Of a stretch of DNA of 64,000 bases, positions 23,627 through 33,134 are shown piece after piece. A program made the translations under genes and the position numbers. The notes beneath the pieces are model-generated. The model saw only the letters and a list, made by a program, of their open reading frames with translations, made no database searches and was not told the DNA's origin. The DNA comes from Prevotella sp. (GTDB taxonomy: Bacteria > Bacteroidota > Bacteroidia > Bacteroidales > Bacteroidaceae): positions 6,278 through 70,277 of the forward strand of contig JAFSNR010000039.1 of NCBI GenBank assembly GCA_017443345.1, in the 5' to 3' direction. Each line of letters begins with the position of its first letter. Within the stretch, counting starts at the first letter, position 1.

Positions 23627-23884
23627 TTATTTGGTTCTGTTCTTGGTGATGAAATCAGCCATCACATTTACAGACTGAAACACTTCCTTGCCTTTCTGGG
23701 GATCTTTCAGCTTAATGCCATACTTCTTCTCCATCAAAACGATGAGTTCGAGAGCATCAATGGAGTCCAGTCCAAGACCACTGCCAAACAAAGGGGCATC
23801 GGCATCGATATTCTCGGGCTTGACATCTTCAAGATTCAATGCTTCAATAATACTCTCTTTCAACTCTAATACTAAATCTTCCAT
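23627..23884 (-). CDS. Acyl carrier protein
   Basis: 'GLGLDSIDALEL' phosphopantetheine serine motif; 85 aa, acidic. Confidence 0.93.
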   Translation of the reverse strand: MEDLVLELKESIIEALNLEDVKPENIDADAPLFGSGLGLDSIDALELIVLMEKKYGIKLKDPQKGKEVFQSVNVMADFITKNRTK

Positions 23885-26487: not shown

Positions 26488-26730
26488 TTAAGCCACCTTT
26501 GACTCTATGTAGTCATAGAATTGGGAAAGTGTCTTAACGGTTGACATCTCCTGAGGTTTGATCTTGAAACCGAAGTTCTTTTCCACAATAACTACAATAT
26601 CTACATAGTCGAGGCTGTCAATACCCATATCTTCTTTCAATTTAGCCTCCGGAAAAATGTTTTCCTCATCTATTTCAAGGTCATCAATCAGGAATGCCTT
26701 TACTTTCTCTTCAATTTCTTCTCTTGACAT
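26488..26730 (-). CDS. Acyl carrier protein
   Basis: 'MGIDSLDYVD' motif; 80 aa. Confidence 0.93.
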   Translation of the reverse strand: MSREEIEEKVKAFLIDDLEIDEENIFPEAKLKEDMGIDSLDYVDIVVIVEKNFGFKIKPQEMSTVKTLSQFYDYIESKVA

Positions 26731-32275: not shown

Positions 32276-32278
32276 AAA

Positions 32279-32306
32279 CTATAAACTGTAAACCGTAAAC
32301 TATAAT
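32279..32306 (-). repeat. 4 heptamers at the upxY-fabG junction
   Basis: Plus strand CTATAAA CTGTAAA CCGTAAA CTATAAT. Confidence 0.9.
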
Positions 32307-32307
32307 C

Positions 32308-32976
32308 TCATATTTTTTCTATAAATGCTGAAGGTATATAGGCGGTTGATATCAACCCAAATTGCGAGAGAGTGATAATGACTCTTTGCTGTCCTGATAC
32401 CCTGGCTACCTTACCCTTCACTCCTGTAAACGGACCGTCAACGACCTGAACCTCCTCACCGCTTTTGTAATGACACTGGGAGGGCTTTACAAAAAACAGA
32501 TGCTCATTCCTGGTGATGGTTGCACGGATAAAGTTTTCCATCTCTGAACAGGCGATAGTTAACGGAGGGTTCTTTTGCTGGTCATCCTGTTCGAAATGAT
32601 TATAATAATAAGAGAGGTAATTGAGAGCGGGTGTACGCTTGATATAGCCCTCAGCTTTCTCTGGTGTCGTATAGGCGAATAAGATATTTGGTATCAATGC
32701 CTTCAACATCCTCCTTCTTTTCCCGTTAACTATCCGATTTGTATACCGCTTAGCGATATACACGAACGTACCATCGTTGATCAGGAAGTCGGAAGCCTTG
32801 TCGACTCGCCCATAGGAGGCTCGGAAGACATACCATTTCTTGTTTTCGTCATGAACGTATCTTACCGACACCCCGGTTTGAACGTTCTTCGCCTCGGGGA
32901 CGATGTCAAGGGTAAACTTGACACTGGAAGGATCTAACTCTCCTCCTGGAGTTTCCACATTAGACAATGTGCTCAT
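32308..32976 (-). CDS. upxY: UpxY-family (NusG paralog) transcription antiterminator
   Basis: NGN domain 'WYVFRASYGR...LIPNILFAY...PPLTI...MENFI'; KOW 'GEEVQVVDGPFTGVKG'. Confidence 0.87.
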   Translation of the reverse strand: MSTLSNVETPGGELDPSSVKFTLDIVPEAKNVQTGVSVRYVHDENKKWYVFRASYGRVDKASDFLINDGTFVYIAKRYTNRIVNGKRRRMLKALIPNILFAYTTPEKAEGYIKRTPALNYLSYYYNHFEQDDQQKNPPLTIACSEMENFIRATITRNEHLFFVKPSQCHYKSGEEVQVVDGPFTGVKGKVARVSGQQRVIITLSQFGLISTAYIPSAFIEKI

Positions 32977-33025
32977 ATTAGCTCAAATGCACACCACATG
33001 GGTGGTTGTCATCGAGAATCGGGCG

Positions 33026-33104
33026 CAAAATTACTAATTTTATGCGAGACTAAAAAATTTGTAATAAGAAAAGTGCAAAAAATGGAAGAAAGTTCGTACC
33101 TTTG
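33026..33104. promoter_or_regulatory. Divergent -7 boxes for the long minus-strand operon and the ACP-ligase unit
   Basis: Minus strand TAATTTTG (33033-26); plus strand TACCTTTG (33097-104). No exact -33 TTTG was found for either. Confidence 0.6.
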
Positions 33105-33134
33105 CAGCCGTTTATTATATATAAGGTACGTACA

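Follow-up and report, generated by a model that had tools for sequence, protein, structure and literature searches.

Why is a gene for an UpxY-type antiterminator the first gene of an operon that encodes no capsule? This question is raised by a 64,000-nucleotide (nt) stretch of a contig of a rumen Prevotella sp. (GenBank assembly GCA_017443345.1, contig JAFSNR010000039.1), hereafter called the window, in which upxY precedes a 23-kb run of lipid and polyketide genes. Specialised NusG paralogs are a known route for taking RNA polymerase through long, costly and often horizontally acquired operons. To our knowledge, those of the Bacteroidota have been studied only at the capsule loci of gut Bacteroides. 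The control of Bacteroides fragilis capsule operons by UpxY and UpxZ was reportedly described by Chatzidaki-Livanis et al. in 2009 and 2010, and LoaP of Bacillus velezensis is said to have been described by Goodson et al. in 2017. A first-pass annotation of the window, made from the letters alone, proposed that a UpxY had here been co-opted for processive transcription of a secondary-lipid biosynthetic gene cluster. Our analysis leads to a modified answer, which we consider probable: a cassette consisting of a promoter, a structured RNA with an ops-like signal and upxY itself became attached by recombination to the 5' edge of a pigment operon of the flexirubin type.

The gene and the layout of its product are as follows.

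32308 to 32976, minus strand: upxY coding sequence, 222 amino acids (aa), analyzed with hidden Markov models (HMMs), a predicted fold and the ratio of nonsynonymous to synonymous substitution rates (dN/dS).
Protein layout (AlphaFold2): residues 1 to 23 disordered; a clade-specific extension to about residue 45; NGN domain, 47 to 163; all-beta KOW domain, 169 to 221.

The protein matched NF033644, the NCBIfam model for UpxY family transcription antiterminators, with 106.8 bits over residues 48 to 219 (cut-off, 100). The models for RfaH (TIGR01955, 31.1 bits versus a cut-off of 144.5; NF006534, 30.1 versus 124), LoaP (NF033641, 30.2 versus 125) and housekeeping NusG (TIGR00922, 28.4 versus 135.7) all stayed far under their cut-offs. 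Pfam placed an NGN domain at residues 46 to 116 and a KOW domain at residues 173 to 201. This is in agreement with the AlphaFold2 model computed with 17 homologs (predicted local distance difference test, 86.9; predicted template modelling score, 0.81), in which an NGN domain is joined to a beta-barrel KOW domain. When this model was compared with the PDB by Foldseek, the top 20 structures were NusG or RfaH throughout, RfaH-ops complexes included. UpxY also has a basic beta-hairpin, NGKRRRMLKALIP, resembling the YKRR[R/K]RVEVP beta-hairpin with which class-1 UpxY proteins touch upstream DNA (PMC11685472). The open reading frame (ORF) is a genuine UpxY-family NusG paralog, and the gene call and the family assignment, which had been based on NGN and KOW domains of the UpxY type, are sound.

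Equally borne out was the position of the gene at the head of the 23-kb run. upxY opens a tight series of 26 co-directional genes (32976 to 9988, minus strand, about 23 kb), with FlxB encoded 32 nt downstream and a divergent gene upstream. The genes of the run overlap or are separated by at most 47 nt, two apparent gaps of 280 nt being filled by acyl carrier protein (ACP) genes (23627 to 23884 and 26488 to 26730).

9988 to 32275, minus strand: 25 flexirubin-type cluster genes downstream of upxY, assigned by HMM scans.

These genes encode FlxB, ketosynthases (KS), acyltransferases, FlxJ, ACPs, dehydratases, a thioesterase, a KS/chain-length factor, LolA2/LolB2, a fusion of a glycosyltransferase of family 2 (GT2) with an acyltransferase, a DarA-like protein, DarB, DarG/H, an esterase, an MMPL/RND protein and one protein without assignment. 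The equivalog models were passed by FlxB (390.8 bits; cut-off, 340), FlxJ (606.8; 560), DarB (556.8; 550), DarH (368.5; 300), which is fused to a DarG-like N terminus, and LolA2_flexi (212.2; 125). The run holds several type II ketosynthases, a chain-length-factor-like protein, FabZ-like dehydratases and LpxL-type acyltransferases, together with the GT2-acyltransferase fusion and an ArnE/F-like small membrane protein that are usual in such clusters. Judged by these scores, what had been called a lipid/polyketide operon is indeed a secondary-lipid cluster and can be refined to a flexirubin-type aryl-polyene/dialkylresorcinol pigment cluster. None of the 26 genes encodes Wzx, Wzy, Wza or sugar-nucleotide functions. 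Similarly, UpxZ (PF06603) had no match in the genome of the window, a 4.16-Mb assembly that is 92% complete, while a Bacteroides thetaiotaomicron control was positive. The earlier statement that neither upxZ nor capsule-type genes accompany this upxY thus stands.

This UpxY clade carries, within its first 115 coding nt, a covarying RNA of three hairpins and an invariant GGGGTGTC box, which are new in this analysis. The parts of the element are listed in their order along it, as seen in an alignment of 19 sequences from -12 to about +125.

32956 to 32971, minus strand: hairpin 1, CACATT-GTCT-AATGTG, codons 2 to 7 (alignment, RNAalifold).
32926 to 32946, minus strand: hairpin 2, GGAGG...CCTTCC (alignment form GGAGG...CCTCC; alignment, RNAalifold).
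32903 to 32924, minus strand: hairpin 3, GTGTCAAG-TTTACC-CTTGACAT, 8 bp (alignment, RNAalifold).
32891 to 32900, minus strand: conserved block TCCCCGAGGC (consensus TCCCCGAAGC; 19-sequence alignment).
32863 to 32874, minus strand: GGGGTGTCGGTA box (alignment form GGGGTGTCGGT) with the invariant core GGGTGTC, a candidate ops-like pause/loading site.

Over the three hairpins, 96.8% of the cells of the alignment were paired, compared to 37 to 47% with slid partners. Two-sided changes occurred at 12 of the 18 pairs (41 cells), and the observed values were matched by none of 500 shuffles. Pairing amounted to 96.5% in hairpin 1, with compensatory changes in locus L010 (CTCATT/AATGAG) and in the type represented by L019 and genome G058 (ACATC/GATGT) and with G-U wobble preserving the pairing in G034 and G096 (G denotes genomes and L fetched loci; G000 is the window's own genome). 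In hairpin 2 it reached 98.7%, and compensation was seen in L005 and between L013 and L016. Hairpin 3 had two-sided changes at seven of its eight pairs, and at one position G-U was the commonest pair, indicating that the structure forms in the RNA. The GGGTGTC core was identical in all 19 to 20 sequences, third codon positions included, and codons 35 to 37 (GGG GTG TCG) were constant while dS exceeded 1 in the remaining gene. Indeed, at similar amino-acid conservation, the majority nucleotide at third positions had a frequency of 0.95 in codons 1 to 8, 0.69 in codons 13 to 45 and 0.49 to 0.52 in the gene body, and between the window and the sister locus L004, dS was 0.12 in codons 2 to 45 and 1.16 in the body. 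By our own reading, the GGGGTGTC box is a candidate fit to the elemental pause consensus G-11 G-10 ... Y-1 R+1. No Rfam family matching the element was found at an E value of 10 or less, where only two chance-level matches were returned.

We considered whether the N-terminal extension could be a non-coding leader and rejected this, given that in none of the 20 homologs do indels break the frame and that residues 24 to 46 are modelled confidently. The 5' region is therefore both coding and RNA-structured.

An element so placed might also be an autoregulatory or translational structure, or a recombination substrate for cassette swaps, with UpxY recruited elsewhere or non-specifically. Its hairpins cover the start codon region, as is typical for translational control, its first 24 nt are near-identical among cassettes on different operons, which could favour homologous exchange, and its pause site is placed by analogy. 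However, the compensatory changes and the G-U pairs argue for selection on RNA pairing, beyond what gene conversion alone would produce, and in G096 the element was kept 12 nt past the FlxB stop codon though promoter, leader and ATG had been lost. Moreover, recruitment of B. fragilis UpxY uses pause hairpins and extended DNA contacts (PMC11685472). We hold it to be quite unlikely that the element has no part in loading, bearing in mind that loading-site and regulatory roles are not mutually exclusive.

The predicted promoter and the leader lie directly upstream of the element.

33026 to 33033, minus strand: Bacteroidota-type -7 box TAATTTTG (TAnnTTTG), predicted from the sequence, 49 nt before the upxY ATG at 32976.
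32977 to 33025, minus strand: short 5' leader starting CGCCCGATTCTCGA, which recurs right after the -7 box in related cassettes.

We infer that TAATTTTG is the cassette promoter. It is the sole intergenic TAnnTTTG on the minus strand between 9900 and 33140, and most clade members have this motif at a similarly short distance (-19 to -69). The leader is nearly identical in L004, and sCCGaTTCTCGA-like stretches are present in L005, L006, L008, G063 and G034. Two other possibilities for this region were dropped. A small hairpin with a GG...TG motif in the 5' untranslated region (UTR; 33006 to 32993) was considered as an ops site; it is kept only in the sister locus L004 and not in the clade. As for an invertible promoter, no inverted repeats flank the upxY promoter, and phase variation is therefore not indicated.

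To what extent is UpxY linked to pigment clusters? Among 150 sampled Prevotella species genomes, FlxB scored above the cut-off in 48, and UpxY was found next to FlxB in 5 of these 48 other FlxB-positive Prevotella (G039, G063, G034, G096 and, beside a FlxB fragment, G058). In the remaining ones, the UpxY genes were located on a different contig or at a distance of hundreds of kilobases. In 28 of 30 Prevotella loci, our own UpxY HMM detected nothing else at up to 1.5 kb from FlxB. Across the order, FlxB was present in 114 of 400 sampled genomes, and in none of the 80 in which the distance was mapped did UpxY lie near FlxB, so that a general Bacteroidales trait can be discarded. The genes upstream of FlxB elsewhere vary from genome to genome (tyrosine ammonia-lyase, IS30 transposase, extracytoplasmic function [ECF] sigma factor, topoisomerase). 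The closest locus, L004 from a rumen Prevotella metagenome-assembled genome, has a UpxY that is 90% identical and the same synteny on both sides. The 13 other species-level homologs (43 to 69% identity, all Prevotellaceae, including Segatella copri) had no pigment gene within 10 kb and head polysaccharide, type VI secretion system (T6SS; ClpV, TssC, Hcp, VgrG) or BspA-leucine-rich-repeat/fimbrillin loci.

By count, the association is thus only sporadic, which is the outcome that the first-pass annotation had named as the mark of a stranded remnant. According to such an explanation, upxY and its promoter were left behind by a polysaccharide locus that has been replaced; the promoter may drive the operon while UpxY hitch-hikes. 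Besides the sporadic linkage, this would agree with the nearest homologs beyond the sister species, which head polysaccharide loci, with the disrupted or truncated examples in G058 and L085, and with published upxY genes that head glycan-derived resistance operons and are often degenerating (PMC8748976). However, a useless gene would not be preserved as this one is: over codons 46 to 222 (NGN-KOW), the window and L004 differ with a dN of 0.047 and a dS of 1.16, and the resulting dN/dS of 0.04 equals that of the neighbouring enzyme FlxB (0.04). Its frame and fold have stayed intact, and so have the promoter box and the cis-element. upxY is under strong purifying selection and is not a decaying remnant.

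Also speaking against a remnant, junctions of this kind originated on at least three separate occasions, one of them as an insertion into the cluster. The order UpxY-FlxB-KS1 with a UpxY of the window clade is found in the window, L004 and G063, and the same order with an unrelated UpxY (about 31% identity) in G039. In G034 and G096, the order is FlxB-UpxY-KS1, the inserted UpxY of G034 having its own -7 box and leader. At these two FlxB-UpxY-KS1 loci (L056:6147-6244 and L057:6445-6457), the start codons differ in their setting: that of the G034 copy is a TTG preceded by a -7 box and a hairpin of its own, whereas the G096 copy, which has neither leader nor ATG, probably starts at a TTG 12 nt past the FlxB stop codon. 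In G058, a fourth UpxY type precedes a FlxB gene that has since been cut by a composite transposon. The UpxY tree shows pigment-linked genes scattered among polysaccharide-linked ones, with G039 far outside, and an approximately unbiased (AU) test rejected a single clade of all six pigment-linked UpxY genes (p = 0.0045). In the FlxB tree, the window, L004 and G063 form one cluster lineage with G039 (100/100) despite their differing UpxY types, and G034 and G096 fall into a second lineage, the other members of which have no UpxY. Because of the junction types and of both trees, at least three independent captures or swaps are needed, two of different UpxY types at the cluster head and one between FlxB and KS1. 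Joins that arose at least three times independently argue for use rather than accident.

The linkage of UpxY with pigment genes is rare, confined to some Prevotella, repeatedly evolved and selectively maintained. The idea of co-option by a secondary-lipid cluster survives in so far as a UpxY without UpxZ heads a non-capsule cluster, is preserved at a dN/dS of 0.04 and was joined to such clusters at least three times; its extension to the Bacteroidota in general does not. We regard a stranded remnant as unlikely. Indeed, remnant versus co-option is a false dichotomy, since the mobile unit is a self-contained cassette of promoter, cis-signal and upxY.

We then asked where else the cassette occurs. 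A covariance model built from the 5' element, R1, was run on G000 and on the 150 Prevotella genomes. In G000 it gave a single match, at upxY (131.8 bits), and nothing further at an E value of 1 or less. Because R1 matches this genome once, the cassette type appears to be dedicated to the pigment operon there. G000 has three UpxY genes; the other two are of different types, one heading a Wzx/GT2 polysaccharide locus and one being an orphan. The orphan, a 326-aa frame (G000:C75:50867-51367; L023:12466-13446, minus strand), has no same-strand operon behind it and converges on a Wza-like export gene.

In the 150 Prevotella genomes, R1 gave 75 matches in 46 genomes, and of the 30 loci that were fetched, 27 show an overlap between the element and the 5' end of a UpxY ORF. 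The first genes behind these cassettes encode FlxB or KS1, a Wzx flippase, Wza-like or YjbH-like export proteins, ClpV-like ATPases, an Erm-type rRNA methyltransferase, a WD40 protein and a C39-like peptidase. At three loci (L084, L085 and L091), the element is kept and the UpxY body is missing or truncated. In L091 (G134:C3:91035-91161; second copy, 82110-82217), the element lies directly before a FabH/KAS III-like gene, in L084 (G100:C6:73660-73799) directly before a ClpV-like gene, and in L085 (G027:C24:13135-13289) it precedes a UpxY cut short by a stop codon. Body-less elements could be loading sites served in trans or relics.

Such elements bear on the possibility that UpxY is mainly a trans-acting, RfaH-like regulator of other loci, such as those for capsule, exopolysaccharide or T6SS, and that its position at the pigment operon is incidental. 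The elements before KAS III (L091) and ClpV (L084) would need a factor in trans, and RfaH is a precedent for unlinked targets. In G000, however, there is no second copy of the element at an E value of 1 or less (a target could be missing from an assembly that is 92% complete), neither of the other two UpxY proteins is of the same type, one having a locus of its own and the other none, and UpxZ is not present. We consider this explanation very improbable. For the same reasons, the earlier suggestion of cross-regulation with capsule loci found no support, and cross-talk through UpxZ was discarded, PF06603 not being found in the genome.

Several further loci were noted. Directly before T6SS loci of Prevotellaceae, there are UpxY genes of the same clade (L011:10001-19031, L015:9992-19948, L018:3772-14420, also L066 and L079), followed by genes for a ClpV-like AAA+ ATPase, TssC, Hcp/TssD and VgrG. 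In L071 (2233-2445) and L081 (638-907), the cassettes are followed by small ORFs (71 to 90 aa) with a twin-arginine-like signal, RREFFKRAAKGALPILA, and Cys-rich tails; by their sequence, these may be precursor peptides. In G058, a complete Prevotella genome, the FlxB gene behind UpxY is interrupted near residue 196 by a composite transposon (L058, G058:C1:318000-337900; duplicate, G058:C1:3315188-3316518), in which two identical genes for a 408-aa transposase surround a gene for a 641-aa ribosomal-protection protein of the Tet(Q)/Tet(M) type. A further cassette of this genome precedes an Erm-type rRNA adenine methyltransferase (L072, G058:C1:1073223-1076360).

How could the cassette work at the pigment operon? 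We start from the family and fold of UpxY, its operon position, the purifying selection on it, a covarying element that is unique in the genome and a linkage that recurs independently; the promoter, the pause/loading site and antitermination by UpxY are added by analogy. RNA polymerase would start at the cassette promoter (-7 box, 33033 to 33026) and transcribe the first ~115 nt of upxY with the three hairpins and the GGGGTGTC box. It would then pause about the GGGGTGTCGGT box, where UpxY would board through its NGN domain and replace housekeeping NusG, by analogy with B. fragilis UpxY at opsX. The UpxY-modified polymerase would finally resist pausing and Rho- or polarity-type termination over 26 genes and 23 kb. 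With its signal contained in the gene of the factor itself, the cassette would act on whatever follows, which would explain why the same cassette is found before polysaccharide, T6SS, resistance-gene and pigment operons.

A wider version of this model can be put forward tentatively, and we are rather less inclined to accept than to doubt it. It holds that Prevotellaceae possess plug-in processivity cassettes, in which factor and loading site are indivisible and which turn a long gene array into an antiterminated operon when recombined before or inside it, the pigment cluster being one capture. If this is true, the body-less elements of L084 and L091 would be trans-served sites and a step towards an RfaH-like regulon.

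Several observations weigh against the cassette model at the pigment operon. Most flexirubin-type clusters have no UpxY (about 43 of the 48 in Prevotella and all 80 order-wide); UpxY is thus not required for flexirubin-type operons, and the general picture of these clusters, most of which lack the cassette, is unchanged. The AU test for a single clade of the five clade-A pigment-linked UpxY genes was borderline (p = 0.041). Ten intragenic TAnnTTTG matches occur in the run, given which internal promoters may exist in the pigment operon. Hairpins resembling intrinsic terminators are not enriched within the operon (20 versus 15 +/- 3.9 in shuffles); we rejected intrinsic terminators as the target of antitermination for this lack of enrichment, which would leave Rho-dependent polarity and pausing as the obstacles that UpxY helps to overcome. 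A single-sequence fold of the window's 5' RNA was no better than shuffles (z = -0.86), so that the structural support is comparative, that is, from covariation only. The pause site, finally, is placed by analogy only, and the ops sites of B. fragilis precede the start codon and lie outside the ORF.

Some other features of the locus and of its genome deserve mention. The spacer between the upxY stop codon and the FlxB start codon (32276 to 32307, minus strand, 32 nt) consists of about four tandem 7-nt units RGTTTAY (TAGTTTAC GGTTTAC AGTTTAT AGTTTAT). The stretch that separates the upxY promoter from the divergent ACP-ligase unit contains an 11-nt inverted repeat, GTTCGTACCTT ... AAGGTACGTAC, with its arms 20 nt apart (33092 to 33133), which by its location is a candidate operator common to two divergent promoters. 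The aromatic (tyrosine/histidine) ammonia-lyase FlxA (PF00221) had no match in the 92%-complete genome, controls being positive, and a related Prevotella cluster (L038) carries a tyrosine ammonia-lyase upstream of FlxB. Since no ammonia-lyase was detected, the starter unit of the polyene is perhaps neither tyrosine-derived nor 4-coumarate, and starter and product may both differ from those of classical flexirubin. Housekeeping nusG (TIGR00922) was not found in the G000 assembly either, which is probably due to an assembly gap (92% complete).

What would follow from these findings? A likely loading signal inside the coding sequence of the factor makes the whole unit portable, and the cassette suggests itself as a compact part with which long heterologous operons could be expressed in Bacteroidota. 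The strong expression that T6SS, resistance genes and biosynthetic gene clusters gain after transfer in rumen and gut Prevotella may be due to it as well. The interest of the locus would be higher still if the model of a portable, self-loading cassette is true. No publication that we found connects flexirubin or aryl-polyene clusters with UpxY or with NusG paralogs.

Among known systems, the UpxY/opsX/UpxZ system of B. fragilis is of the same family (NF033644). There, UpxY is recruited to polymerase paused at an early ops-like site in the leader, helped by RNA pause hairpins (Saba et al. 2024, PMC11685472), through multipartite contacts over about 40 bp with non-template and upstream duplex DNA (PMC11685472). 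In both cases, upxY is the first gene of a long operon that it is expected to serve, a Bacteroidota -7 promoter lies just upstream (predicted, in the window), early hairpins and a conserved DNA box follow, and the NGN domain has a basic beta-hairpin. Unlike in B. fragilis, the operon of the window is for a pigment and not for a polysaccharide, the genome is without UpxZ and holds only three UpxY genes, the promoter has no flanking inverted repeats, and the candidate element lies within the coding sequence (in the N-terminal extension of about 45 aa) instead of the 5' UTR. UpxY proteins without UpxZ were noted by Wang et al. 2020 (PMC7593976). A parallel in cargo comes from gut Bacteroidales, in which upxY is the first gene of resistance operons behind invertible promoters and is often degenerating, which was read as a leftover (Yan et al. 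2022, PMC8748976). These operons share with the window an upxY at the head of a non-glycan operon, and Erm- and Tet(Q)-type genes stand behind this clade's cassette in G058. However, the upxY of the window is under strong purifying selection, has no invertible promoter and precedes 23 kb of biosynthetic cargo.

RfaH of Escherichia coli is likewise a NusG paralog loaded at a short early pause element (ops) of long, horizontally acquired operons. It serves several operons in trans, and its KOW domain is alpha-helical and autoinhibited; in the window UpxY, the KOW domain is predicted to be all-beta, and the element is in cis and unique in the genome. TaA of Myxococcus xanthus (TA/myxovirescin; Paitan et al. 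1999, as cited in PMC7593976) is described there as a NusG-like antiterminator within the polyketide cluster that it serves. As far as that description goes, it resembles the window UpxY in being encoded inside its cluster; the two differ in that TaA comes from a NusG-paralog lineage unrelated to UpxY and is not known to have an embedded RNA element. The closest functional analogy is LoaP of B. velezensis, a NusG paralog that serves long secondary-metabolite operons (the dfn and mln polyketide operons) through a leader element (PMC12691694). LoaP, however, belongs to another NusG subfamily (its model gives the window UpxY 30.2 bits, the cut-off being 125) and another phylum. Its leader, upstream of the genes, includes a terminator and a hairpin, and co-transcription as the first gene does not apply to loaP in the same way. 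The UpxY of the window would thus parallel LoaP and TaA in function without being a member of the LoaP subfamily. Overall, a UpxY captured and kept under selection by a pigment-lipid, secondary-metabolite cluster would be the counterpart of LoaP and TaA in the Bacteroidota.

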